From NCBI GenBank assembly GCA_001662655.1, contig KV460223.1: a DNA stretch of 64,000 nucleotides. One strand, 5' to 3'. A program made the translations under genes and the position numbers. The notes beneath the pieces were generated by a model. It searched no databases, was not told the origin of the DNA, and saw only the letters and a list, made by a program, of their open reading frames with translations. Below are positions 11,101 to 33,093 of the stretch, one piece after another. Each line of letters begins with the position of its first letter. Position 1 is the first letter of the stretch. This DNA is from Pseudogymnoascus verrucosus (Eukaryota).

Positions 11101-12039
11101 TGCAGCGATTGTTGTTGTCTTTGGTTGGTGTTAGTGTTGAGTTTGTTTGTGTGTGGAAGTGAGAGTGAGAGTTGATAACCTCAAAAGGTTATAAGTTAGG
11201 ATTGGGATTGAAAAATACCTTGATTGATGAGAGCGAGTTGGATGATGTGTGATACAATCTTTACAAGAGACTGGTGATAAGATCGAGGTGTTATTTAAGG
11301 AGCGTCGGGCGAAGGTGGAAGTTGAAAGTTTTGTGGGTGGTAGCAAGCGTGGGTCTGAGGAGGACTGATGAAGAAGGAAGAGCAGCGTCTAGGCGTGAGA
11401 GAGACAGAATATCCGAAACGGCGGCTAAGTTGGAAGAGAGAAGGCCGGACAAAAGTTGACTTGAGAGAGAAAAGTGCCGGTAATTAAATAAAGAAGTTCG
11501 GGTATGGTGCGAAGATTCCAGTCAAACAAAGCCTAATCAAACAACGTTGATCCACAGAGCGTTTGCTTGGTCTTGTGGTCTCGGGCAATGAGCGACTGGG
11601 ACCGGCCGTCACAATAGAATTATAATGACAACAAAGATCGAGCGAGCACAAGGACTTTTCTCAAAAAGACCCTCGTCCGACAATTTCCTTTCCTGGGCAA
11701 CGAGAGAAAGACGGTGTGGTTGTAATAAAAAAACTGTAGCAATATATCACAGGCTAAGTCCCAATGGCGAGGCCAGGCGGCGGTTATAAAGTATCAGCGA
11801 AGAAAAGAATTTGCGGCTTTAAGACCGGATATGCGCCCTCAGATGCTTGGTATGGCGAGGGTAATGAATTTCTTTATTTTTTTGAAACGGTGTTGCAGGC
11901 CATAAAATAAAACAAAAATAAAACAGCGTGGCCGAGGTATGAGGGTGACCTGTGTGGAATGTGAAATGAAATATCAAGCCGCTTTTTCTTGTATCACAGT
12001 ACACGGCCCGAGATGCGGATTTGCATGTGGCTGCAGTGG

Positions 12040-13330
12040 GTAAACGTGACGGGTGCAAGCTTCAGGCAGGAGGACAAGGGAAAATGAGGAATAGAATGGG
12101 GTGAGAAATGTAATAGTAGAATTTGGGGAGGAATAGTAGAATAAATATATACCCTACTTTGACTTGGGGAGCGGAAAGCGGGACGGTGTAAGGTGTGTGG
12201 TGTGAGTGGAAGTGTGGTGTATGGTGTATGAGAGAGATAGAGGGTGACGAGGGAAAGCAGCAGGGGGAGTAAAAAAAAAACGGATGAGAAGGCCGGTGGA
12301 TGCAGTTTAACAGGATTAGATGGCATCATGGGCCATAACAATCCAGGTAACAGGGTAATTGCAGTGACGAGGAAAGGGCCGTGTGGCCAGTACTAAGCAA
12401 AGGAGTAGCATGGACAGTAGCATGGACATTAGTGTACCAGAGAAGGGGAGAAAGAAGCATTTCGGAGCATGCCTTTTTTTTTTCTGTCGTGGAGTAAATT
12501 AATCCTAGAAGAGAGATAGACAAGGGAAAACCAAGAGTTGACGGCAGATGAGAGACGAGAAATAACTAAGTACGAGTGGAGAGTGGGGGAGGGGCAGGGG
12601 GGAGAAGGGAGCGGCGGGCAAAGAGAGGGAAGGATGGACAGGATTGACAGGATAGACAGGAAATTTAGACAGGGAAGGCTTTACCGAGCAGTATGAGAAT
12701 GAGATTCGAGTCAGAAGTATGGTATTGGGGGGGGAGGGGTGGTGGGTTGGTGGGTGGAGGATGGATGGAGAGATAGTAGCAAGTAGTAGGAGGTAGGGTA
12801 TAGTAGAGGAGTAGGGGCGGAAGGGGGGGGGTGGGTTCGAGTATCGTACGTAGAGTAAGGTAGAGTGGGGTAGAGTAGAAGTAAGTAGTAGAGTAGAGTA
12901 GAGTAAGTAAGTACAGTAGCAGGAGAGACAGGGGGAGCAAGTAAGTAGTAGGAGGCAGGGGGAGAGTAGAGTAGAGTAGGTTAGGGTAGATTAGGGTAGA
13001 TTAGGGTAGGTTAGGGTAGATCAGGGTATAGAGTAGTAGGATCGATGATGGGTGGGTATGTGTGGGTATATGGTGAGTCGATGGTGGGAAGACGGTGCGA
13101 TGAGGGTGCGATGAGGGTGCGATGAGGGTGCGATGAGAGTGGGGTAGTAGTAGGTAGTAGTAGTATGTAGTAAGTTAGTAGTAAGTATTAAATAATTAGT
13201 AAGTAAGGAGTAAGTAGTATGTGGGTGGTGGCGTAGCATAGTAATGGAGTTAGGAAGGTATGAAGAGTATGAAATGTTTGAAGGGTATGAAGATAGTACA
13301 GTAAAGGCAGGTAGGTATGTTCGAAGTATG
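12040..13330. repeat. Purine-rich low-complexity tract (AGTAG, GTAGA, TTAGGGTAGA, GATGAGGGTGC units)
   Basis: Strong G/A skew on the + strand. Five TTAGGGTAGA-like units at 12981-13030 and four GATGAGGGTGC-like units near 13095-13140. Confidence 0.8.
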
Positions 13331-16300
13331 CGCCAGGATGGTTGAAAGTACATGTTAATTCAGTTGGGATTCCATATATTCCGGATGTATATTTGTGTAC
13401 ATGTGTCATTTTAGAAGCATTTTTGTCACTGGACAGAAAGAAAATATGGGGTGGAAGGCGACGACGACCCCACACAAGCGAGAGAGTGCGACCTTGCAGG
13501 ATGGGAAAGGGGATGGATGGGAGGGGCCGCAACTCTTACCTTCCCTGTATTGTACATTACACATTTCATACATAAACAGGCCTGTATAACGGTATTGCAG
13601 GCCTGCTGCATTGTACAATATTGTATACACTTTGTACTCTACCAGCTATATACTCTCCGTACACAGCATCACAGCATCAGTATCTACGAGTACAGACAAG
13701 CAGAAGTACAATATGCCTGTGTATGCCTGTGCTCTCCCTGCCCTGCCCTGCAGTGTCTTGATCTCCCTCATTAAACCCTGCATATATCATACCTTACACA
13801 GGTAACACATACAAAGCCGTTGCCAACACCCGCCCTGTCTGCGCGCCACCACCCTCTAGGAAGAAGAAGAAGAAGAAAAAATAATAAATATACTCCCCCT
13901 GCACACAAGATGACTATACTATCCGAACTCTCTGACAGTTACAGTACATGATCGCATGCATCATCTCCAGATCATCCTCCTCCTTTTCAATGTGGACACG
14001 GGACGCTGGAATCATAGCGAAAAGCCACAAATAGATCCATAATCTGCGCCGCCCCGCCGTGTGCCGCCAGTGCGCTGTTACCGGCCGCGCGATTCCACAG
14101 TAATCCTTCTTACTTCTAACGGGGAAGGACGCACATGCAGGGAACAGGCATCAGGGCATTTGTGGTCGGCAGAAGCAGAAGGGAGGGCGAGTAGAGATGA
14201 GATGAGATGTGATATGAGATGAATGAGCCACATGAGGCTGAAGGCGCGGGACATTAGGCGGCGTTTCCGTGTAAACAATCTCAGCACATCAATACTCTAT
14301 TATGGTATATGGCGACTCATCCGGTTTGATGACGACGGTGGTCCTGCGACGGAGATGACGCTGGATGGGCTATGAGACGGCGCGGCGGTGCTAGGTCCGC
14401 AATTGCGGCCAGGGAGAGAAAGAAGCTGAGCTCATTCTCTCTGCACACACCTACTCCTCTTCCATAACCGTTCTATCCTCGGGCTCTACACAGCACAAGA
14501 CTCACACCCTCAAAACCCCACCTTTTCGGCGAGACTTTTCGCCTCAACTTCTCCACCTCTCGCTGCTACGCCGGAGACTCAACAACGTCCGTGGGTCCGG
14601 CTACCGAGGTGCCGGTCTGTATGCCTGCAAGTGTAATAGCAACACGTGGCGGATGGGACTCGCAACGGCGAAGAAAGATGGAGATGGGGAAGGGAAGGAA
14701 GGAGAAGGCTTGCCGCGAGGGATGCTTGAGTCGTATCAGTGCCGTGGTCTCACCTCCCCGCTCTCACTACTATCGTCGACACCCCGGCGTTTGCCTCGGG
14801 TCTGTATGTACAGTACTGTCCTGTACAGCGCAGTACATCCACCACCACCACAGATCTCTGGTCGTGGTCCCCTCGTGGTGAAACGCCTGGTCTCTTTCCT
14901 CCCTTGGTGTATGGCTCCCTTCTCTCCACTCACATCCCCGCACCAGCCGATGTCTTATCTGCCCGCGTTTCCCCTTCTGTTCCGGCCTGCATTGGTTAGC
15001 TATCATCGCCGATTGGGGTTGGGCCGGCCCGTCAATACCTTCTTCACATATGCTCCCCAGCTCGAGATATTGCCCTCCTTGGCCACATACATACATGGCA
15101 CACCACCACCAACCACCACCACGAAAAGGTTCAACGGGTTCACATGTCTGTGCTAACATGCGGGCACTTATGCATACGGACACACTTGCGTACGTACATC
15201 CTCTCGGCCACATCTTTTCATACCCAATTCCTCCACACCCACCACGCACACAAGCCCCGATTTAAATTCCCGACATCCAGGGGCCGGGGCCTAATCCCTG
15301 AGGTGTGCGCATGGCGACGGCCGAGAGAATAATCCCCGTCCGCCCACTCCTCCGGTTTCGGGAGTTGCGAGAATCGACCGAGATGACACGGCCAAAGCTC
15401 TCTGCAGATTTTCTCACAAGACAAACGGAGGTGCCATGGACCGCGCCCGAGCTCTGAAAATCCCCTCAACTCGACGGAGTAGAGATAGGCGGCTTCCTGA
15501 TGCCGAATCTTGGTACAGCGAAATGTCTCGCCCATTGCCAAGCCGCCTAACTTGACCCCAGCTATCCCTAGCACCCCCCAGTTTGCTGCAGCGCGCTCAA
15601 TCTGGCTTGCCGAACAGGGGTCGGACTACAACCCCCCACTACCACGTTTTCGTCCATCGAGAGCACCGCCGAAGCCGAAGGAGAACGCGGGACGAGACGA
15701 GACTTAGCTCAAGATCTATATCAATGCAACGGTCTTGCATCATTAGAAGATTCGCATAATGATCTGAATGTGGTGTGCGTGCTGGATGAATCAGTTCTCC
15801 CCGATACGATGAGATGGCGATTTCATTTGCGATCTGCTCGACCAGCGCAACCCTCGTCTGTCCGTCCATCCACCACCCCCCTCCCCATATTCGCGCACAC
15901 CCTTTTTCACGGCAACTTCCCTCCCTCTGCGAAAAGACTGGTAGACCGCACTTGCAATCTCACCGAAACGCCGGCCCGTTCTCGGCTACACGATGCTCAC
16001 TACCAGATGGGCGCGTCCGGAGACATGCCGAACGACGAGGGCGACGAGACGGGCAAAACAGAATGCTCATCTGTGCGTAGTTCCGTGATCGACCGGTAAA
16101 GGCGCTTTGTACCTATACGATGATCCGTATATGTCTTTCGGACTCCGTGTTGTCTCAACTTAGATCGTCGGGACTATGTATCTTAGGCAAAAAGGGCAGA
16201 AGGACGGAAGAGGGGATGCGGAGGGAGAGAGAGAGGGAAAGTAGAGGACAAGGAGGGGGGGAAGCCGTATCATAATGTTCTCTTGAAGCAACGTCCTATC

Positions 16301-19125: not shown

Positions 19126-21602
19126 TCACTGGTTCTTCTTGTCCACCTTCAGTGCAGCGCCCTGCTTCACGGGGGTTAGTTCAAGTTCCAGCATCGTCGT
19201 CGAGACATGGCCCGAGGGTAAAGCTCACCTCAGCAATCAGCCGCCTCCCAACCCCTATCGTCTCTGCCGGACCCCTCTGCCTTGCCCAGAACCGGTCCTC
19301 AGCGGTTCCTTGGCCCGTCAGGGTCGAGCGTCTCGCCTCATCTGTATCACGTCAGCTTCAATCCCATGTCTCTAAACTGACTACGGATAAAATGTAGTCA
19401 AGCAAGACGTAGGTGTCCTTACCTTCAAGAGTCCTCCTATCAATCTTTTCTCCGGCAGTAAAGCTCTCACCCACAAACCGGTCTGCGTCCGCCTTCCCCA
19501 GAGCCTCCTCGAGGTACTTCCTCCTGATGGAAAAGCGCTCGCGACGCAGCTTCTGTTGGCCAGGGGAGTCGATTTTCGATAGCCCGTAGCGCACGGCGAA
19601 CTGCACGGCGAGGAAGATGTGCTCCGCGAAGAACATGGTGAGAAGCAGAGCCCAGCCAGCGAGCTGGCGGGGGCTCCCATCTGTTCCCATTCCGTCGCCG
19701 GAGAAGAGGTACACAAGCGCTGCCGTCGTGAGGCTGCCAAACCAGGCGAGGAAGCCAAGAGAGTCGATCCAAGGTCCGATGGAATCGGCGCGCCATGGGA
19801 TCGGGCGCTGGGTCTCGATGGTGATTTTGAGCGCGTCAGAGCGCAGCTCGATCCAGTTGTTGATGAGGAAAGAGACTGCAGTGAGTGGCCAGACAACAGA
19901 GAAGAGCGAGAGGTAGCCGAACTGCACGATCATCTCGCGGAAGTCGGTGGCGACATCGTACACGCCGAGTTCAGCTTCATTGCGGACACGAGTGAGGAAG
20001 TCGTGTTCCTCGGGGAGATCGCTGACGGTGTGGTCTTGTTTGCGCTCGCTCTTCCTGGTGGAGTTGGCTTGGACTTCCTTCACCTTGCGGAATACGCGGC
20101 GCTTGACGTATGGCACGATGACTTCGAGCGCGAGATTCACGATCTGTGCGGTGACGGTGAAGTAGATGACCTGCTTCTTGAGCCTGTCTGGGTTGATCTC
20201 AAAGCCAGACTTGGGGGCAGTCATCTGCTTTGCATTCTCAGCAAACGGCTTGACAGTTAACTGGAACACATCGAGATATGGCACCAGAACAGATGCGAAT
20301 GGGACATAGACGAATGCTGTCAGGATAATTGGCAGATACGACGTGATGAAGTTCAAGACGAATATCTTCTGAATCATTGCAGATTCATATGCATCTGTCG
20401 TCTCATAGTTCTCAATGTCGGTGAGCCTTGAGGCAAATCCGGTGAGCATAGACGACAGTGCCGGCATGAAGACTGTCAGAATTACCGTTGGTAGGAAGAC
20501 GAGATATGACTTGAATGGCCCTGCGTAAATTTCCGAGATGAAGATCTCGATGCTGAAACATGTGCAAATCAACGAGCCTAGAACAACGGCCGCGACTATT
20601 GCAAATGGAACCTGCAGCGCCTGTCTCGCCAGTCGCTTGAATGGAGAGTAGGTCCTCATCTTCTCCCCAGTAACTGGATCCGTAAATTCCCTCTCATGTC
20701 TGAACTCTGGTCGCTTCAACTGTATTTTTCCAATGCCTGTGACGTTCCATTGGAAAGCCAGATCGACCTCTTGCTTTCTCCAGTATTCAACAAAACCAAC
20801 ACACCATAAACAGTTGACGACGGCATATATTGGGGAGTAGTGACCCAGGACGACCCAGGATGTGAAACCAAAGGCAGCGGGAAAGACGAGAAACATGAAA
20901 TACGATTGCAAGAAGGCAAAATAAAACGCAATCTTCTCGCCGAAACGATCGCGGACGACCGTCAAGTCCTTAATGTCGAGAACGTATTTCGTTGACCATT
21001 CTGTAATCCATTTCTTATTGAACTGGTGGTCATGGAGCGCGAAGACGGATTCCACGTTCGCCCACTCTCCCCTCTTGGGTGTAATTCCAGCACCGCCTTC
21101 ACTGTTGGGTTTGGTGATGAGAAGATATACCAGGCGCAGACGTTCCGCTTCAGTAATAGGCTCTTCAGATATGGCTTTCTGTATATCCTTCTCTGGGGCA
21201 GCGGTTCGCACGCCATACAGCCAGTCTTGAACTCTTGCCCTGTATATTTCCGCGTCCAGATGGCGGGGAGAGGAGATTCGAACGAATACCAGGACGGCGC
21301 AGTTGTCACCATTGCGGACTTCGGTATCGAGCCCAACACGAGCCAGCGCGTCTACTAGCTTCGAAAATGCAGCTTCGGCCTCGGCCTGGTCTGGTTGATT
21401 GTCAGTGTATTGTTGACTTGGATGCAGGTCTGGCTCTTCTCACCCGTAGTCGCAAAGCGGTAGTCAATGACATAGTCGACACTGTTCAGCATCAGCGAAA
21501 CTCCTGGGGTGTAATCATGGTGAGCGCATACTTGAAAGTCGAGTGAAGTGTAGCCTTCCCGGGTTTGGGCGCTTCGTACAGCGACGGTATTGGCGACGCC
21601 AT
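19126..21602 (-). CDS. IST2: Anoctamin/TMEM16 Ca2+-activated scramblase/channel (Ist2-like)
   Basis: Motifs VRDRFGEKIAFYFAFL, FSIEIFISEIY, DFREMIVQFGYLSLFS, NNWIELRSDALK, RADSIGPW. Spliced model from MASPIPSLY (21602) to ...KVDKKNQ* (19126) with 4 GT-AG introns. Confidence 0.92.
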
Positions 21603-22236
21603 AGATTACTTCAAGTACGCACAGAGGGGACCGCCCGTGGAGAAAGCGTTGGGGAAAAGAGTGTAGGATGCGTAATAGAGGTTGAAAAATAAAGAAGAAG
21701 GGCGACGACGACGATATTCGCAAGAAGTTGGCCCCGCTGCTGTGCCTCCAAGTTGGCAGGGCCTGGCACTTCCCAGCTACCCTACAGAGCTGAAGCTGGC
21801 TGCTTTTGTGGGTATTCGTGACGTCGTGTCTCGGAGATTTCCCCACCAAACCAATTGATAAGAACGCTAGCGGCCGCCTTGATAGCTACCCCCCCATATT
21901 CCCCGAATGCACCCTTGCGGTCCAGATACTCCGATATAACCTCAATTCCTTCAATATCTCCCGTATCACCTAAATAACAGTCTTTTAGCCAAAATTGACT
22001 CGTTTGCGCTGGCTTAATATTAGATGCGAGGTTCCCGAAATTGCCGACCAACCCACATACCTACGCAGTTATGAGGCACTATTGAGCCACTTCTGCTGAG
22101 CGATTATATATCCTAAAGTCCAGTACTCAACTTCCTACAGTCCATTGGGGTTGTATAGAAGGCGCAAGTATACGCCCAGACATTGCCAATCCACCGCTAC
22201 AACTCCCGCTTGTGCCGGCCCGGTCGCTCTCTCAAT

Positions 22237-23260
22237 ATGACTCTCCCGTGGTCCTTCCGAAAATCGAAATGGGACCCTCCCTCCCTCCTCGAAAGCTTCC
22301 TCCAATCCCCCCTAGCAGTCCTCCTCGGCTTCCTACACGCCCTCCTCATCAGCCTGCGCGGCGCGCCCTTCCACCCTCCCAAAAACCGGCCTCCCATCCG
22401 CGTCGTCTGCATCAGCGACACGCACTCCCACCAGCTCTCCAACATCCCCGCCGGCGACCTGCTCCTCCACTCTGGCGACCTCACGAACGACGGGACCATT
22501 AAGTCCCTCCAAGAATCTCTGGATTGGCTCAACACGCTACCACATAAATACAAAGTCGTCATCGCCGGCAACCACGATAGCTACTTCGACCCGAGCGCGC
22601 GCAAGGAGGAGGATATAAACTCAAAGACGCGCTTGGATTGGGGGAGCATCATATACCTCCACAACCGCTCCACGCATCTGCGCTTCAAAGGCGGGCGCAG
22701 CTTGAACATTTACGGTTCCCCCGATATCCCCAAATGCGGCGGTAAAGAGCACGCGTACGTCCCCCTCCTCTCCCACATCCAAAAGAAACAACCCCCACTA
22801 ACCCCCACCCAGATTCCAATACGACCCCACCACCCCCCCCTGGCACACCCGCATCCCCCTCTCCACCGACATCCTCATAACCCACACCCCACCCCACACA
22901 CACCTCGACCTCCTCCTCGGGTGTCCCTCGCTCCTCTCCGAGATCTGGCGCGTAAAACCGCGCCTCCACGTCTTCGGGCACATCCACTCGGGACATGGAC
23001 AGGAGTCCGTATTCTGGGACGGGGGGCAAGCGGCGTATGAGAGAATCGTGGCGAGGAGGGGGGGCGTTTGGGGGGATCTGGTGCCGAGTAGGGCGTGGGT
23101 GGATGCGTGGGAGGTGGTGTGGTATGGGGTTAAGGGGGTGTTGTGGCAGTGGCTGATGGTGGGAAGGGGGGCGGGGGGTGGGGGGTTGTTGGTTAATGCG
23201 GCGTTGACTTATCAGAGTACGAGTGAGATTAGGAATGCGCCGCAGGTGGTGGTGCTGTGA
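22237..23260 (+). CDS. Calcineurin-like metallophosphoesterase (MPPED/239FB-like)
   Basis: Motifs ISDTH, HSGDLT, IAGNHD. After an intron at ~22755-22812 come ITHTPP and HVFGHIH. Confidence 0.9.
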
Positions 23261-24020: not shown

Positions 24021-27000
24021 TCAGTTTTTACCAAGGCCAGTAGTATCCATCACCGCCTCAGCCGCCAACTTCTGCCTCTTGGAACTCTGCTCATCCTGCA
24101 AGCCCTTTCTCAGCTCAGCATAATATGAGCGTGTCCGCTTCCCGATTGGTTGTGATTTCTTCACGACCATGGCAACAACTGATGGATGAGCAATCTTTTT
24201 CTTGGTCCTAGCGGATGCCGAGACAATTTTTCGAGGAGCATTTGGCGCTTTCCATGGATCTGTCGCCAGCATGATGGAAACCTTGCAGTTGCAGATTTTG
24301 GGCTCTTCTTTCCTCCACTTCTGGATGGCAAGCTTAGCCTGTGCAGATGTCACCAGATCAACAAACACGCATCCAGCCGGCTTATTTTTTTCCTCCATGA
24401 TCCATACTTCTGGAAAGTCAATTCTCGTCCTGGTAAATACAGTCAATAAAAGATAGTATGGGCGTAACGAAGGCCGCAAATTGATCTTTTCGGATAGCCA
24501 CTTACACATTGTAGCCCAAAAACAATTTCTCTACTTCTGCCTTGGAGGGAGTAAATGAAAGGCACCCAACGAGTATTCTCCGTCGTTCCCACGTTGCAGC
24601 CTGTCGACTTGTATACACATTCGTATCTGGTATCTCTTGGGTGAAAAGATCCAAAGACGCATTCTTATATCCGACGGTTTCTTGTGGTTTATTTGCTTGC
24701 GAGGTGTTCATACCACCTACGCCGGGGAAAAAGCCTGAAGGCGTCGGGTTAAATCCCATGTCTTTGCCGAATATAGCTACATCTCCAAACGATGTCATCA
24801 CAGGCAGTCTCCCAGCAGAGCCTGTAGTTTGAGTTCCAGTAGTATTTGACGCCGCGCCAGTAGAAAAACTGTGGTCCCCGAGTGCAGGCAGGGCGCGAGG
24901 TCGACAAAATATCATTGAGTTGCATGAGGCGGAAGATTTTTGGCTGAGGGGCGAAACTTCCTTCCGCTTTCTCCAAAGGTGTATATTGTTTAGGTTTACC
25001 TCCTTTTTAGTAGTAATGGTTGATACTGAGTACCTGCTCGGAAAACCAAGTTCAGTTTGAGGAATCCCCTGCTGGGATTTTTCAGCCCTGATGATCGGTA
25101 CTGACCCATTACTTGCGGGCTTCCATGGCTTGCCAAACTCAACAACAGGCAAACCAACTGGAGTTTGTGGAATTTCCTCCTTGCGAAAGTTGGCGCTATC
25201 TGTAGTGATAACATTTGCAGCGGCGAAATTTGCAGTGTTGACTCCTGACATCTCTACATCCGGAGAAGGAGCAAATGATCTGTCAGTCATTTTGAGCTCC
25301 GATGATGGGGCTCTTCGACCAAGGACACAAGGTTCCGTCCAAGTGCGACATGATTGTATATCATTCTCATCATCAGAATTGCCAGGTGCCATAGAGTTTG
25401 GCACAGGTTCTTCAACGCTGGGCTTGACATCGTTGTTCATTTGGTCCAACACTGAATCCACTGACATTCGTACTTCATCCATGGTTCTCAGAAGCTGGTT
25501 ATCTAGCTCTGCATCGAGGATTTCCAAAATGTCATGCCTGTCAATGGATAGTTCACATATGCTATTCGCCATGTTTGCTTCCAATTCCTAAGTCATGTCA
25601 GCTATACGTCGTCCATGAAATATCAACACAAACCAGAACATAAGCGGAATACTGACAAGTTGTCTGCTTGGGCTATCGATATCAAGTTCGGTGGCACAGT
25701 GACCGTTCGCAACACTCAATGCTCGTGGTGTAGCTCCGTGTAAGCTCGACCCAACAGTGCGCTCTATACCACCCCAGGAGCTGCCATCTCCTTTATGGTT
25801 TATAGGAGTTGATCGGATTCCAAGAGTTAATTGGCTTCTAGGAGTTGATTGGATTCCTCGAGTTGATTGAATTACAGGAGTTAATTGAACTGCAGGAGTT
25901 GATTGGACCCCCACAAAGTTGGCTGTGGGGTGAATACTCGACAACAAATCGCCGGCATGATCTTCTTTGAAAACGACTTTCTGCTCTTTGGATCCCGACC
26001 TTACATCTCGTGTCCATTTCTTCTCCATTTTGCGGCTGCCCAACGTGGCCTCTTCGAAGTCAGATTTGGATATGAATTGAAAATCTTCGTCTTCTCTTCT
26101 TTGGGTTCTCTCGGACTTTCCATCTGTAGCTGGGTTGGAGTTCTTTGCAGTAGGTCGAGACTGTTGAGCAGAATCTTTGGCGGGCGCGATACGAGCAACT
26201 TCTTCGCCAGTATGGATCACTTGGTTAATAAACTTTATCATGGAGCTTTGGAGCATATTATCATAAAGCGCGGAGTCTTTATCAAACACTGTAATGGCAT
26301 GATCCTCCTCGTCGTATAATTCATCCAGTTTCCTAAACACAGGCTCTTTCCTTCGATCGATGTCATCACGAGACTTGCGGTACTGAACGGTGGCTCGGGT
26401 TCTGTTGCCATCACGCACATTAAGTTCATCAATTAAACGACTTCGAATGTCTTCAATCTTGGTGCGCCTTGTTTGGTCCCGAAGCATCCTGGTCAATTGT
26501 ATTGATGATATGAGCAACTTCAGGAGATCCTGAACATGCAACTGACTCCGATGCACAGCGTTGTTGCGGAGCTGAGTGGCTTCCTGAAGCAAGACCCGTA
26601 ATGGGGTCTGAACATGCCCATCCAAGGCATCTGCAGGAATCCGTGCAGCCCCAAGGAGGTCTCGCCACTTGGAGATTTCAACCTGGGCCGGAGTTGTCCA
26701 CTCCCGGACTCTGGGATCAGAGGCAAACCATGTCTTCGCGAAATCAAAGCAGCTCTCTTCCAGCAATCGTTGGACAGTGTTGAGCAGAATGTGCTGTGCT
26801 TCATACGGCAGGCATTTCGGGGCACTCAACGAAACCGACCGGCTTCGACGAGGCATCTCGAAAAGAAACGTGGGGGTGGAAAACAATGCGAGAACGTGAA
26901 CTTGCTGACCTAGAATATTGTTAGTTATGTAGAATCAAGATGAAAAGATGCAGAGATGTAAAGTATACTTGATGGGGGGATGAGTGGGTTATAACACCTT

Positions 27001-27582: not shown

Positions 27583-28677
27583 GGGTATTGTTTACTTACA
27601 AAATCGTACCAAGTATATGCCCGCCAAACAAACCAAATATAGAGGAAGGAGGAAAGGGAACACAAGCTTGAATAATACTCTAGCTTCTCAACTCGGGTGG
27701 TGCGTGATCAGGAAATGGTAGAATATACCGAGACAGCCCAGATTGTGAATCAGAAAACCAGATAATCTCGTGCTTGTGCCTGCCTTGTCTCCGTAAAAAA
27801 TGATGGGGCAGCTTCCATGCCAGAGACTTCAAGAAAAGGGGGGGGACTCCCAGTCACTGAGTTGAGTTTGAAGTGGGCATAAGAAAAGCATTCATTAAAA
27901 AAGCACATATAACAAAGCGGTACAGCGTCCACGTTATAATTGTGGGAGACAAAACATGCAGTATAATCAGCACTTTAAAACCACAAGACCAGATGGGAGT
28001 ATAGCTGTGTTAAAAGGGCCCATGGTAAAGAACTTCAGGGGAAACATGGTGAGACTAGACCACAAAATGAGAAAAGTAGAAATATGACATTTTGTTTTCA
28101 ATCTCAAAGCCATAAAAGACCCCACAATATTGCAACTGCAGCTGTCTTGTAAAGCACCGACAGATACCCAAGATCAGAAGATCATAACTCCCTGTAAAAT
28201 GCACACTCAAGTTCTGAGAGAAGTGCCACGATGTGATAGAAGCTCGCTACAAGTAGGTCGTCCCCGGGTGACTTGCACCACACCTTCCAAACCTAATATC
28301 CCTAACATAATACAGTAGTAATTCTTTCCATAACCTCAAAGTCACCAAATGGATCATGAATACTGGCAGGCGACTCGTTCCTGCTGTGTTTGAAAGTCAG
28401 TGATATTGATATTGATGTGAGATTGATGCCTGGGCGCCTGGGCGATAACAGGCCACTAGTGAGTGGGAAGACCCATGCTAGTCGCACGACCCCTCTGTGT
28501 GCTTATCCACAAGGCTACAACTCCAAACTCTAAGCTCCAAACTCCGAACTACAACCACCAAACTCCACTCCAACCTCTGCCAAAATATTTCTGCTTTGGA
28601 CTACATCACACCCTTCTTCGTTACTTTCCATCTCGTCTTGCGGCGCTTTGTCGTACGCCTCTCTGCCCTACGTCGAA

Positions 28678-30007
28678 ATGGCCCCAACACAGCCAAACGC
28701 CTTCCTCTCCACCCAGAAGTCAGATTCCGGCCTTGAGGTTGCCCTCCACCCTCTGGTCCTCCTGACGATCTCCGATTACATTACGAGGCATACCCTTCGC
28801 AACCAAACCGGGCCCATCATTGGGGCTTTGTTGGGTCAGCAGAATGGCAGAGAGGTCACTGTCGAGCATGCGTTCGAATGCAAAGTCCAGGGCGGCTCTA
28901 TAGACCCTGAATGGTTCACGACCCGCTTGCAACAGAGTACGTGTTTTCATCGCGCCCTTATTTCTCTCACCAAGCTATTTCTAACGATTGGTAGTGAAGG
29001 ATGTCCATAAGAACCCCCCGCTCGACTTTGTCGGCTGGTACACCCTCATTGCCTCGTCTGGGCCCACAGACTACCACCTTGCGATCCAAGAGACACTATC
29101 GAACCTAAATGGTCCCGAAACCCCATGCATCCTCCTTGGCTTCCTCCCCAGCGAATCATTATCCAAATCCTCCAACGAAGCCCTTCCAATTACAATCTAT
29201 GAGTCTATAGCCAAGCCCGCCGACACCAGGGCTGCTGGTCAGGATGTCGAAATGGAACAGAGCGACTCCTCACCCAAGACCGTTTTCGCCGAGCTACCAT
29301 ACGTTATCGAAACAGGTGAGGCTGAAAGAATAGCCATCGACTTTGTCGCCAGGGGTGGAGGAAATGCCACGGCTGTCTCATCATCGACCCAGAAGCAAAC
29401 AAACGCATCCGAGGAGAGCAACAAGGGCAAGAAGCGAGCGTCAGATGATACGGCGAAGGATATAGATGTCAACGATATCCTGTCCAATGAAGAGACAGAG
29501 CTGATTACAGCTTTGACTGCAAAGGCAAATGCAGTCCGGATGCTGCAGTCAAGGATCAAGATTATTCAGAAGTACCTGGAATTACAACCTCCGACAGACG
29601 CAACAGGCCAGCCGTCCGCACCTGCACAAACCTCCCACCTCGAGCCATCCCCTGAGATTCTCCGCAGCATTGCAGCGTTAATATCCCGCCTCCCTCTCGT
29701 CGTGCCTTCATCGTCAAAAGACACGGAGACCGACACCTCGAAATTCGACCACGACCTTCTCGCCTCACGCAACGACGTAAACCTCGTCAGCTTGCTAGAC
29801 ACGCTTACGCAAAGCATTCAAGGCACGCGTGAGCTTGGACGCAAGTTCGGAGTGGTGGATGCAGCGAGGAATAGGACCAAGTTCCAAGAGAAGGTAGATA
29901 GACAACTTTCGATGCAAATGCCAGACAAGGTGTATAGCCAGGGAATGATGGGGATGATGCAGGCAGGAGTGCCCATGAGGATGGATGAGGAGTATTATGA
30001 TGCTTGA
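28678..30007 (+). CDS. CSN6: COP9 signalosome subunit 6 (MPN domain)
   Basis: VALHPLVLLTISDYITR, GALLGQQNGREVTVEHAFE, DFVGWY, ETGEAERIAIDFVA, NDVNLVSLL. One intron at ~28938-28993. Confidence 0.9.
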
Positions 30008-30556
30008 GGAGTTACGAAGAAAAGGGGGCAAATCGAAATATGGGTGCCTTAGCAAGCGATGGAGTTATATAGGGCTGCTGCATATTTACGGTATTCATTC
30101 TAGAAATGCGTGCGTGAGATCCGCATGTTGGAGATCTATAGATGATACAGTGTGTTTTCTGTGCCTGTTTGGCGATACGTTGCGCTATGAATAGTGATAT
30201 TTATTGCTAGCTGCAAGCGCATGCAAATAACTCCGCTGTAATGTCACCTACATAAGCTCTGCATCATCATATTAGTCAAAATCCTTAAGAAATGCTAAAT
30301 GCAAACTACATTTCGTCCAAGTTCCTGGGCTCTCATGGCGATGCGATTGTAAAGTGTATATACGTCCCAAAGTGGAAGGCGGTGAGACGGCGCCAGGCGT
30401 TGAACCAACCGTCGCATCCATCCACGGCTGCAGTTTGCGACAGACGCGCTTATAATCGAAGACGCGCCTCCAGCAAGTAGCACCTCCTAATTCCAGCCAA
30501 TCCATCTACCAGCGAGCTGAATCGAGCGAGCGCACAGCTCGACAAAGTCCACAAAC

Positions 30557-33093
30557 ATGCCGCCCGTAAGTTCCCCCCCACTATCTCGCGCCAACCAACC
30601 GTCGAATACTGACAATTTGTAGTTCAAGGATGAGCATATCCTGGTACGTGCGGATTTCGCCCCTCTCCCCCCCCGCGACAATGAATCGCGAAGCTCGAGC
30701 AAGGGATTGGAGGGTTTGATGAGGGATGTTGGAACTGATTAGATGACAGATTATTGCCCCGGGTAGCTTGACGACGCTGGCCCAGTTGGGATTACCGGAG
30801 AGCTTCACGCCGGCGAGCACGAAGGTGCGGACGCGCATGTTCCCTGCTGGGGAGGGGAAGTGGGAACCGTATAAGATCAATGAGGTGAAGAAGGCGAGTC
30901 CGCCGGCGGCGAATGGGGGAGAGGTTACGATGGGTGGGACGGACGAGGAGGAGAAGAAGGAGGATAATGAGGCTGAGCCCGAGTTTGAGGAGGATTTGGA
31001 GTCCGATGAGGGGGCGGTATACCCTTTGACTGGTATGTGGTATGCAATGCTGTGTGAGTGGAATGGGTGCTGACTATGACATTTCAGAGGGCAGAATTAC
31101 GAACATGCCAGCGTTTTTAGCCTTGATGAACCACATCCACAGCGTCCTATCGCCTACACTTCACACCCCGATACTCCTGATCGCACAGCCAGCATGGACA
31201 GCACAAGATATCGAAGCGCTGACGCAATTCTTCTTTGAGAAGTTCAAGACCCCCGCCTTCTGCATCATGGATTCCGCGCTCGCAATCTCGTACGCATACG
31301 GCGTCCAGAACGGCACGGTCATTGATGTCGGATTCCAGAAGACGGACATCACAACTATCCACGATTTCTCGGTGCAGCATGTTGGTCGCGCCATCAGCGT
31401 GCCGGGCACGGGAGGCGACGCTATGACAGAGCGGTTGTTGGAGCTATTGGGGCCGAAGGGCTGGACGAGGGATATGTGCGAGCAGTTGAAGAAGAGCCCG
31501 TTCTGCGAGATCTTACCTGCTGGTGCGCCATTACCCGGTGCGGATGGCGCGGAGGATCAAGGAGCCAATGGCAATGGGGCTGCGGCAGGTGAGGCAGCGG
31601 CAAGTTCAACAGATGCAGCGCACGCAGATGTCGACGAGGATGATGTGGAGAAGGGCATTGATGAAGAGGGTGTTCTGGACGTTGCGAGCATTGTTGCTAG
31701 CGGCAAGACGCAGGAGTTCTTGGCGCAGCAGGAGCGCAAGAAGCAAATGGCGGCATCGAGGAAAGCAGCAAAGGACGCGAGAGACGCGGCGGAAGTTGCA
31801 GGTGCTAAGCCCATTCGACTCCCTAACTCGAAGCGTGAGAAGGTTATTTTCCACTACCAGGAGCGCAAGGCACAGGGTGAGATTGATGAAGCCCTCGAGA
31901 ATGGCAATAAGGCGGCTGCTGCAGATGTGGAAATGACAGAGGCAGTTAAGGAAAAGACGCCTGAGGTAGCTGCAGCTGAACCAGCCACCAAGGAAGCAGA
32001 ACCAGCGGCGCCTGCCCCAGAAGCCAGCGGTGAGGCCAAACCCGCTGAATCTGCGCCCGCCCCAGAAGCCACAGGTGAGGCCAAACCTGCTGAAGCCGAG
32101 CCTGCGCCAGCAGCCGATGGCGAGACCAAACCCGCCGAAGCCGCACCTGCTGCAGAAGCCGAAGGCGAGGCCAAGCCTGCCGAGGCAGCGCTTGCCACTG
32201 AAGCCAACGGAGAGGCCAAACCCGCCGAGGCCGCCCCAACCGCCCCTGACGCCTCCGTCACAGTCGAAGACGCCTCCGCAAAGCGCGAGCAAGTACGCGC
32301 CGCCAAGCGTGAAGAGAAGCGCAAAGCCCGCGAAGGCGCCGGCGACCCCATGCAATGGCGCCGCGAGATCGAGGTAGGCACCGAGCGCTTCCAGGCCGCG
32401 AGCAACGGGCTACTCGACCGAATTGCGGATGCCGTGCACCGCACTGTGTTGGCTGGGACGGAGCCTAGCAAGCGTGGCGATTTGTGGGATTCGTTGATTA
32501 TTGTGGGCAATGGCAGCCGGGTTAGGGGGTTCAAGGATGCGCTGCTCGCTACGTTGATGAAGAAGTACCTTATTTCCCCGAGCTCGGCGTCGATTTTTAC
32601 GTCGGAGTTGCCGTCGAATTTGTCGACGCCTATGGGGACTGGTGCGCAGACTCCTCAGAGGGATTACCCTGCTGGACAGCACGCGTTGCCTACGGGGAGC
32701 GGCGTTAACCCGCTACTGCTCGCAGCGACAACAGCTAGCAATCCAACGCTGAACCCGAACGTATCGGTCGCGAACTCGTTTGGCGGCGGCGGTAGTCACA
32801 GCCACAGCAGTCATGGGCAAACACCTACGAGTATGAAGATTGCGAAGGTGCCCGAGTATTTCCCTGAATTCAAGGTATGTCCCTCTCTCCTTGTCAGCCT
32901 TGGCAAAAAAAAAGCAATGAGCTAACTTGGGAAATAGAATGAGGGCTTCGAAGAATGCGTGTTCCTCGGCGCGCAGGTGGCTGCTAAGGTCATCTTTGTC
33001 CAGGATCAGGGCGTGAGCAATGGGTTTATGAGTCGTGTGCAGTATAACGAGAATGGGCCCAGTGGGATACACGATGTGGGTTTGACGTTCTAA
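30557..33093 (+). CDS. ARP9: Actin-related protein Arp9 (SWI/SNF-RSC subunit)
   Basis: MPP|FKDEHIL|IIAPGSLTTLAQLGLPESFTPA; FFFEKFKTPAF; IEVGTERF; LWDSLIIVGNGS; KVPEYFPEFK; FLGAQVAAKVIF. Ala/Glu/Pro-rich GEAKPAE repeat insert at ~31960-32250. Confidence 0.88.

Follow-up and report, generated by a model that had tools for sequence, protein, structure and literature searches.

On the minus strand of the window (the whole stretch of DNA analysed here, 64,000 nucleotides from Pseudogymnoascus verrucosus) I find one three-exon gene whose product of 896 residues is probably a modular, RNA-directed protein. Its N-terminal domain would represent an unnamed HEPN branch, nearest to the Swt1/Abi2-like domains and with its catalytic-type motif intact, and a divergent RRM lies near its C-terminus. 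The RNase activity, the RNA substrate and the biological role of the protein are my inference. The gene is laid out as follows:

24021..26856, minus strand: whole coding region, three exons and two introns, 896 codons plus stop (sequence and orthologue models)
25657..26856, minus strand: exon 1, residues 1-400; its start ATG (26856-26854) is kept as start in P0005, P0006, P0008 and P0009
25588..25656, minus strand: intron 1, 69 nt, phase 0, GTCAGT...AG (sequence; the orthologue proteins skip it)
24506..25587, minus strand: exon 2, residues 401-760 and two bases of codon 761 (sequence)
24430..24505, minus strand: intron 2, 76 nt, phase 2, GTAAGT...AG, interrupting the RRM after helix 1 and before strand 2 (sequence, orthologues)
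24021..24429, minus strand: exon 3, residues 762-896 preceded by the final base of codon 761, with the TGA stop at 24023-24021

The first-pass annotation of this DNA had proposed that three stop-to-stop open reading frames on this strand (25588-26934, 24502-25587 and 24021-24530) splice in frame into one protein, and this is confirmed by the sequence and by orthologue models. Joined together, the segments 26856-25657, 25587-24506 and 24429-24021 give 2691 nt, with 896 codons and a sole, terminal stop. Both introns are of the GT..AG type, the first carries a CTGAC branch-like site, and five annotated Pseudogymnoascus orthologues (P0007-P0011) cross both junctions with identical flanking residues; in all five the exons are one gene. 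A wrong gene model, in which the RRM exons sit on a separate transcript or the locus is decaying, and related genomes share a fusion created by annotation, is very improbable. Such a reading could draw on the ORF-style calls P0005 and P0006, which end after exon 2, and on the gene model of P0004, which omits part of the RRM. However, the 896-codon frame stays open through two canonical short introns, the junctions are identical in five orthologues that show 53-68% identity to the window over exon 1, no separate Met-initiated start was found just before the RRM, and all three indels listed for related contigs (two of 18 nt and one of 3 nt) are multiples of three. In addition, the domains are conserved well above the linkers, with 52-84% identity to the orthologues as compared with only 41-62% for the S/T/P/G-rich linkers at residues 217-400 and 451-735.

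The N-terminal part of the protein contains the following features:

26476..26823, minus strand: HEPN-like four-helix domain, residues 12-127 (AlphaFold2, VIA-align neighbours, conservation)
26758..26760, minus strand: codon of E33, a near-invariant Glu in helix 1 and the upstream Glu of the first-pass annotation
26677..26679, minus strand: codon of E60, a nearly invariant Glu that caps the N-terminal end of helix 2, which starts at residue 61
26548..26568, minus strand: R97-N-N-A-V-H102-R103, the R-x4-H that ends helix 3 and the invariant next Arg
26209..26475, minus strand: long helix, residues 128-216, a single helix in AlphaFold2 (pLDDT 93-98), predicted to pair with a second copy as an antiparallel coiled coil

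According to the HEPN survey by Anantharaman et al. 2013 (PMC3710099), the source of the Abi2/Swt1 group, a HEPN domain consists of four bundled helices, with an insert separating the second from the third, an Rx4-6H motif closing helix 3, a polar residue right after the R that contributes to catalysis, and an upstream acidic residue, canonically in helix 2 near the motif. AlphaFold2 models built on 128-sequence alignments (pLDDT 92.8 for 230 residues; pLDDT 93.5 and pTM 0.85 for 132 residues) show this topology, with helices at residues 18-43, 61-70, 86-102 and 108-124 and an insert at 71-85 between helices 2 and 3. In an exhaustive structure comparison with VIA-align, HEPN domains, assigned as such by their titles or by the survey (PMC3710099), make up 12 of the best 25 chains at modest Z scores of 5.6-8.6, and once the long helix was trimmed away the generic bundles fell and HEPN entries took the top of the list. 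No KEN structure is found among the best 50 VIA-align matches; murine IRE1 (4pl5_D) appears only in the Foldseek list, with E 4.8. Foldseek searches of the PDB with the 230- and 132-residue models gave no match at E<=0.001, and the matches listed are generic bundles with rmsd 7-20 A. The assignment of the N-terminus to HEPN made in the first-pass annotation is thus upheld by topology and by the exhaustive comparison, and finds no echo in Foldseek at that threshold.

The motif itself, R97-N-N-A-V-H102, is encoded by 26568-26551, exactly where it had been placed, and helix 3 ends at residue 101-102 in the models. A lone R-x4-H within a 400-residue sequence is within chance, and the motif therefore derives its weight from its conservation. 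Among 158 relatives, which come from five classes of Pezizomycotina, R97 is kept in 156, H102 in 155 and R103 in every one, so that the expectation of R and H being conserved in homologues is borne out; a polar residue occupies position 98 in 156 of 158 (H in 102, N in 50, D in 4), and the motif of the family takes the form R-[N/H]-x-x-x-H. Retention across five classes is what a functional catalytic site would show. Two acidic candidates, placed by the topology of the models, are about equally constant, E60 capping helix 2 (156/158) and E33 within helix 1 (156/157). An upstream Glu had indeed been pointed out in QRLLEESC, and E33/E34 of this LLEE stretch sit 64 residues upstream of the motif; the canonical acidic residue of helix 2 nevertheless fits E60 rather than a Glu of helix 1. 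On the grounds of topology and profile register, R97 and H102 would be the equivalents of catalytic HEPN residues.

A true HEPN fold could also serve as a non-catalytic module for RNA binding or sensing, in which case the protein would be an RNA-binding scaffold or regulator. The HEPN of Roquin is not known as a nuclease; its halves flank an inserted ROQ RNA-binding domain, whereas the RRM of the present protein lies at the far end. A non-catalytic HEPN has likewise been inferred for Swt1, whose own HEPN has lost the motif (PMC3710099). The same survey describes inactive HEPN versions as having lost the motif; here, however, 155-156 of 158 relatives retain the R, the polar residue that follows it and the H, and I consider this explanation rather unlikely.

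Links to known HEPN families at the sequence level are weak but in register. In the family proteins scanned, no Pfam HEPN family is matched above its cut-off. Below it, 4 of 127 members have weak matches, three to HEPN_Swt1 (E 0.12-0.17) and one to HEPN_RiboL-PSP (E 0.012), and all four cover the RxxxxHR motif. Aligned by hhalign with 30 genuine bacterial HEPN_Swt1 domains, the family profile has R, N/H and H in register, with P between 0.0049 and 0.016 across runs (0.016 and 0.0066 included) and a probability of only 2.8-5.8%; two genuine HEPN families set against each other reach only 39%. The local score of 20.2 is beaten by one in 100 column shuffles (21.4), the reversed profile scoring 17.2, and in global mode the score is 15.7 over 90 colinear columns, as compared with a maximum of 13.0 in 60 column shuffles. 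No match was obtained by hhalign with the RiboL-PSP HEPN (score 12.5, P 0.26), nor any HEPN match at E<=10 by phmmer and the family profile among PDB sequences.

These data also bear on the suggestion that the four helices form a bundle unrelated to HEPN, which would resemble it only in the common up-down arrangement, and whose conserved Arg/His/Arg cluster would have a different role, for instance in contacting a partner protein or a ligand that carries phosphate. This is improbable, as trimming the long helix dropped the generic bundles and left HEPN entries at the top of the structural list, the motif occupies the exact HEPN topological site with the expected polar residue after its Arg, and the four independent weak Pfam matches as well as the hhalign alignment fall on the motif in register.

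The probable HEPN branch differs from each of its known counterparts. Compared with Swt1-like HEPN domains (PF18731), which it resembles only marginally in sequence (P 0.005-0.016, probability below 6%), the fungal family keeps the motif and has its own invariants, namely LEE and a Q-H pair within helix 1 and an Arg right after the His, and it carries no PIN, WW or AAA+ ATPase fusion. The KEN domains of Ire1 and RNase L are eukaryotic HEPN RNases with R-N-x-x-x-H spacing, the same as in the present protein, but they follow a kinase domain and are activated by back-to-back dimerisation. Bacterial HEPN toxins from HEPN-MNT systems and related defence systems (1wwp, 1jog, 5yep, 7ae2, 8xdj) are also close; in contrast to these, the protein is eukaryotic and multi-domain, its HEPN-like domain being joined to a long helix and an RRM, and its gene has housekeeping neighbours in the window and no nucleotidyltransferase antitoxin partner.

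Active HEPN RNases usually have a composite site, in which two motifs meet at the dimer interface. A coiled coil had been predicted behind the HEPN-like domain in the first-pass annotation, and of this the helix at residues 128-216 is confidently predicted and its pairing is seen in the dimer model; the heptad signal is weak (hydrophobicity 0.48 at a/d positions vs 0.34 overall). The homodimer model has an ipSAE of 0.78, as against 0.00 for the best of three controls, at least 96% contact agreement between runs and a partner pLDDT of 87. For orientation, the dimer mark was reached in a microbial benchmark by 21 of 30 same-chain pairs and none of 23 single chains, and in a eukaryotic benchmark by 17 of 29 pairs and none of 30 single chains, with only one of seven among the pairs that lack an older solved relative. 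In the model the long helices run antiparallel, centred at residue 173, so that the numbers of contacting residues sum to about 346, and the interface shows a 3-4 spaced, antiparallel pattern. The listed interface comprises residues 3-27 and 133-214 and does not include residues 97-103. As the helices are antiparallel and the motif is absent from the listed interface, this dimer model does not support the notion of a coiled coil that sets two RxxxxH motifs opposite each other. The predicted outcome would instead be a dumbbell, with a HEPN domain at each of the two opposite ends, and because the modelled dimer keeps the motifs apart, a meeting of two catalytic motifs would require end-to-end or higher-order association.

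Downstream of the long helix, the protein consists of the second linker (residues 451-735) and the following elements:

25657..26208, minus strand: linker 1, residues 217-400, of low complexity and poorly conserved, with an 18-nt tandem repeat at 25804-25907
25438..25587, minus strand: acidic helical island, residues 401-450, conserved (50-86% identity to orthologues)
24222..24582, minus strand: RRM and flanks, residues 736-830, split by intron 2, with RNP2 from residue 738 and RNP1 from residue 780
24024..24221, minus strand: Lys/Arg-rich C-terminal tail, residues 831-896 (K 15%, R 8%), with basic stretches conserved in the orthologue alignment

The long disordered linker of the first-pass annotation is recovered as regards composition and poor conservation, but is broken by the conserved helical island. 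The C-terminal RRM that it had recognised is confirmed in an orthologue. A structure search of the atlas with residues 705-805 of the orthologue P0008, which are 79% identical to the same region of the window, returned RRM_1 clusters in 10 of 10 rows (TM by query 0.67-0.80; feature score 0.90), with the beta-alpha-beta-beta-alpha-beta fold of PF00076 found in this orthologue; of nine PDB profile matches, eight are RRMs. RNP2 and RNP1 are in the places expected of a canonical RRM, but the Pfam scores lie at or under the cut-off. The best RRM_1 score, that of P0011 (E 4.7e-4, 20.4 bits), remains under the gathering cut-off of 20.7, P0008 scores 13.6 bits, and the other six orthologues scanned have no match. 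The three exon products scanned singly against Pfam gave nothing meaningful and no RRM match. Canonical RRMs carry aromatic residues at position 2 of RNP2 and positions 3 and 5 of RNP1, and these are partly replaced here: the RRM of the window carries L, C and F there (one of three kept), that of P0011 I, Y and F (two of three). Canonical stacking of RNA by the RRM in the window is uncertain, judging from these residues.

If the protein is indeed a modular HEPN ribonuclease, its HEPN-like domain would, like characterised HEPN enzymes, cut RNA internally without a metal and produce 2',3'-cyclic phosphate ends. The divergent RRM and the basic tail, connected to it through the two disordered linkers with the short conserved helix between them, may hold or select the RNA.

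The HEPN-like domain is not confined to Pseudogymnoascus. A search at E<=0.001 yields 565 representatives (at 50% identity) throughout the Pezizomycotina, a family for which there is no Pfam model and of which many members are misnamed "ubiquinol-cytochrome-c reductase cytochrome c1". Within the 64-kb window, a domain profile search found no second copy; the gene has a paralogue of about 400 aa. At least one family protein has an attached, putative NB-ARC/TPR sensor, putative fusions to DNA polymerase kappa also occur, and 59 longer members share a conserved N-terminal region, whose profile finds nothing in the six frames of the window, the present gene being without it. In the tree, the six members that start with a RanBP2 zinc finger at their N-terminus all belong to a group sister to the Pseudogymnoascus clade, and the joint clade of both (n=24) has a support of 0.953. 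The first-pass annotation knew of no described fungal protein of this architecture. This needs to be divided, as the domain is common to a large family, whereas the RRM fusion is seen only in the Pseudogymnoascus clade within the sequences examined. Few HEPN proteins are recognised in filamentous ascomycetes beyond the universal Las1, Ire1 and Swt1. A literature search found no paper on an ascomycete HEPN family of this kind; the family alignments of PMC3710099 may already include such proteins.

A wider and distinctly tentative reading, which I hold to be possible rather than probable, is that the Pezizomycotina family as a whole consists of unrecognised active HEPN RNases, antiparallel dumbbells activated by end-to-end or higher-order assembly, that may act in RNA-level conflict with mycoviruses or retroelements or as cell-death effectors, and to which RNA-binding heads would have been added per lineage, the RanBP2 zinc finger in one clade and the RRM in Pseudogymnoascus. 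If true, hundreds of unnamed or misnamed fungal proteins would gain a testable prediction of motif-dependent RNA cleavage. A propagated annotation error is corrected as well. The two kinds of RNA-binding module, independently attached to the same domain, could give a handle on substrate choice, and the predicted dumbbell poses a concrete question of enzyme activation. The value lies mostly in the family, the single gene of the window being of moderate interest.

Antisense to the gene, open reading frames occur at 25061-25591 and 25903-26319; neither has a Pfam match and both are taken as chance. Three read sets compared with the window consist of contigs, with no splice joints reported; the one that carries a transcriptomic label is probably DNA, and its contig at 24311-24461 extends into intron 2. 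The calls P0005 and P0006 are unspliced and read through intron 1.

On the minus strand of the window, three stop-to-stop open reading frames abut (25588-26934, 24502-25587 and 24021-24530 in the ORF listing), and they can be joined through the following features, all read from the sequence:

26856, minus strand: start ATG
25656-25588, minus strand: intron 1, 69 nt, GTCAGT...AG, with a CTGAC branch-like site
24505-24430, minus strand: intron 2, 76 nt, GTAAGT...AG
24023-24021, minus strand: TGA stop

The joined exons amount to 2691 nt or 896 codons, with the terminal stop as the sole one. A search of longer proteins returned eight relatives with 53-68% identity across exon 1, those named being from Pseudogymnoascus. 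The five annotated Pseudogymnoascus orthologues (P0007-P0011) cross both junctions with flanking residues identical to those of the window gene, while two ORF-style calls (P0005 and P0006) read on into intron 1 and end after exon 2; all three exon indels in related contigs (18, 3 and 18 nt) are in frame. The predicted splicing rests on splice signals and conservation, and the observation in the first-pass annotation that the three ORFs form one in-frame protein is confirmed.

AlphaFold2, run with a 128-sequence alignment, models the N-terminal region with a pLDDT of 92.8 for residues 1-230, and of 93.5 (pTM 0.85) for residues 1-132. The modelled helices span residues 18-43, 61-70, 86-102 and 108-124; in addition there is a short helix (48-52), an insert (71-85) and a single long helix (128-216). 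The HEPN survey (PMC3710099) describes a four-helix bundle with an insert separating helices 2 and 3, an Rx4-6H motif where helix 3 ends, a polar residue after the R of the motif and, upstream of the motif, an acidic residue that lies in helix 2 when present. The predicted model, in which R97-x4-H102 closes helix 3, and the conserved residues fit this description, with E60 (helix 2 cap) and E33 (helix 1) as the two candidates for the acidic residue that would lie beside the motif. A single R-x4-H motif in a single sequence means little, and its weight comes from conservation: R97 is retained in 156 of 158 aligned relatives, H102 in 155 and R103 in all 158, with position 98 being H in 102, N in 50 and D in 4, so that the R and H are indeed conserved among homologues, as the proposal of a HEPN ribonuclease would have it. 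The near-invariant residues in this alignment are Q21, H22, L25, Q29, L32, E33, C36, F39, W43, W53, E60, L61, W64, P74, A77, R97, A100, V101, H102, R103, D127 and R130.

Foldseek, which had been suggested as a check on this region, gave no match in the PDB at E<=0.001 with either model (1-230 or 1-132). VIA-align, comparing the trimmed model with 48,161 representative chains, supports the HEPN-like fold.

Top rows of the VIA-align comparison, three values per chain, the first being Z
3mfn (function unknown): 8.6, 3.0, 96
Roquin 4txa: 7.6, 3.1, 97
1wwp: 7.4, 2.9, 94
Csm6 4rgp: 7.2, 3.2, 95
HEPN 2hsb: 7.0, 3.2, 98
sacsin HEPN 3o10: 6.8, 3.4, 96

Lower rows contain Csm6 6tug, Swt1 4pqz, 1jog, GlnE 3k7d, HEPN 4nqf, MtlR/YggD, the HEPN toxin 8xdj, AbiA, Cas13 and others. 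Six of the 25 best chains (two of Roquin, AbiA, two of Cas13 and 1ufb) I take to be HEPN domains. Apart from these, 12 of the 25 are HEPN by title or by the table in PMC3710099, at modest Z values (5.6-8.6).

The sequence link between the fungal domain and HEPN is marginal yet consistent. Weak Pfam matches to HEPN families occur in 4 of 127 family members, namely to HEPN_Swt1 in P0053, P0134 and P0155 (E 0.12-0.17) and to HEPN_RiboL-PSP in P0032 (E 0.012), and all four matched stretches include RxxxxHR and fall on the motif end of the HEPN profile. A set of 30 genuine HEPN_Swt1 domains was drawn from genomes of the cyanobacterial phylum (30 of 301). Compared with this set by hhalign, the full family alignment gives P 0.016 and a probability of 2.8% over 52 columns, and the R, N/H and H stay in register, as does the Trp of helix 2. 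The trimmed domain scores 20.2 in local mode (P 0.0066, 38 columns; reversed control 17.2; 100 column shuffles with median 11.3, 95th percentile 15.4 and maximum 21.4) and 15.7 in global mode (P 0.0049, with 90 colinear columns spanning the full profile of 115 positions; maximum of 60 shuffles 13.0, reversed 9.9). No match was found to RiboL-PSP HEPN (P 0.26; 29 domains from 30 loci returned, the underlying search having matched 59 of 251 genomes); as a yardstick, genuine HEPN_Swt1 against RiboL-PSP HEPN reaches a probability of 39% over 23 columns. HEPN is the best explanation for this domain, and as far as the fold is concerned I consider it very probable.

When exon 1 is used as query in an exhaustive phmmer search, 565 representative proteins pass E<=0.001 and 180 pass E<=1e-10, almost all covering residues ~8-200 of the exon 1 product, and the earlier claim of an architecture without fungal precedent is thus wrong at the domain level. 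The genera of the named members presumably belong to the Leotiomycetes, Sordariomycetes, Dothideomycetes, Eurotiomycetes and Lecanoromycetes, and the Atlas clusters of the family are 100% Eukaryota, with Ascomycota the commonest. No Pfam model spans the domain in any family protein scanned. A frequent UniRef/NCBI label in the family is "ubiquinol-cytochrome-c reductase cytochrome c1" (P0018, P0020, P0053, P0178, P0182, P0193); neither Pfam nor any other result supports this name, which looks like a propagated misannotation. The usual member has ~390 aa with the domain beginning near residue 130; the ~400-aa Pseudogymnoascus paralogues P0176 and P0177 show ~30% identity, and the conserved N-terminal region of this type is absent from the window gene. 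Literature searches, which did not extend to the supplementary family alignments of PMC3710099, listed no paper describing the family.

Six family members carry an N-terminal RanBP2-type zinc finger, and in a midpoint-rooted FastTree phylogeny of 158 domain sequences over 213 columns every one of the six falls within the group sister to the clade of the window gene, the joint clade of 24 having support 0.953. The domain would therefore have gained a zinc finger or an RRM inside a single family branch, and since both are commonly RNA-binding, an RNA substrate fits. In P0174 (1452 aa, Paramyrothecium) the HEPN-like domain (residues ~1180-1365, hhalign probability 99.8%) is C-terminal to NB-ARC, DUF7779 and TPRs, an NLR-like arrangement seen in this protein alone, where two gene models may have been fused. 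In two proteins of Sordariomycetes, P0175 (992 aa) and P0180 (1049 aa), DNA polymerase kappa domains (IMS, IMS_HHH, IMS_C) follow the domain; this may be a true fusion or conserved adjacency merged by annotation. The two tandem domains of P0032 (321 aa; RxxxxHR at residues 74 and 239) resemble tandem HEPN pairs in other systems.

The coiled coil had been proposed as a dimeriser. A two-copy ESMFold2 model of residues 1-230, made without the family alignment, has an ipSAE of 0.78 versus 0.00 for the best of three controls, contact agreement between runs of at least 96% and a partner pLDDT of 87. In calibration the ipSAE mark was reached by 21 of 30 microbial one-chain pairs and 0 of 23 single chains, and in eukaryotes by 17 of 29 pairs but by none of 30 single chains; among the 7 eukaryotic pairs that had no relative solved earlier, only 1 reached it. 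As the residue numbers of the contact pairs 166-180, 173-173, 144-202 and 140-209 sum to ~346, the helices are modelled as antiparallel about residue 173; residues 3-27 of either copy contact the distal end of the partner helix, and the HEPN domains would sit at opposite ends of the dimer. The motif residues lie outside the listed interface, in which residues not listed are merely uncertain. In Ire1, RNase L, Csm6 and Las1 the two motifs lie side by side, and if this enzyme requires paired motifs as well, it would need end-to-end or higher-order assembly. On this model the helices would pair without bringing the motifs face to face, and the proposed dimerisation mechanism needs revision.

How far each region is identical in the orthologues
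HEPN-like domain: 58-83%
Long helix: 54-81%
Helical island 401-450: 50-86%
RRM region 736-830: 52-84%
Linkers: 41-62%
C-terminal tail: 38-57%

Because intron 2 interrupts the RRM, this domain was examined on orthologues instead. Pfam RRM_1 matches P0011 (E 4.7e-4, 20.4 bits versus a cut-off of 20.7) and P0008 (E 0.062), and none of the remaining six of the eight relatives; a five-orthologue profile reaches E<=10 with nine PDB sequences, of which eight are RRMs on the same region (best E 0.07). The C-terminal RRM is borne out by the Atlas model of residues 705-805 of orthologue P0008, for which 10 of 10 rows are RRM_1 clusters (TM 0.67-0.80, feature scores up to 0.90). At the RNP positions that are aromatic in canonical RRMs the protein encoded here has L, C and F, so it may bind RNA in a non-canonical way. 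Clusters of basic residues (at 606, 735 and 837) may point to nuclear import. Taken as a whole, with the predicted ribonuclease activity, antiparallel pairing and RRM targeting included, the reading of the protein as an RNA-directed member of an unnamed HEPN branch is somewhat favoured.

Linker 1 contains an 18-nt tandem repeat (window 25804-25907, 5.8 copies, 76% matches) coding for a reiterated Q-S-T-P-like hexapeptide, and its repeat number differs between relatives, one unit of 18 nt being missing at 25873 in a related contig. Amid the disordered region, an acidic helical segment (window 25438-25587, residues 401-450) shows a degree of conservation equal to that of the folded domains. It matches no family and might serve to bind a partner.

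The genes flanking the window gene, at 19358-23040 and 28534-32925, are ordinary, encoding an anoctamin/TMEM16 (minus strand), a calcineurin-like metallophosphoesterase, a JAB/MPN + MitMem_reg protein and an actin-related protein, with no clustered defence-type genes seen among them. In the 2-kb composition profile, the GC skew reaches +0.41 at 12001-14000 and +0.20 in the 2 kb before, far exceeding the remaining window.
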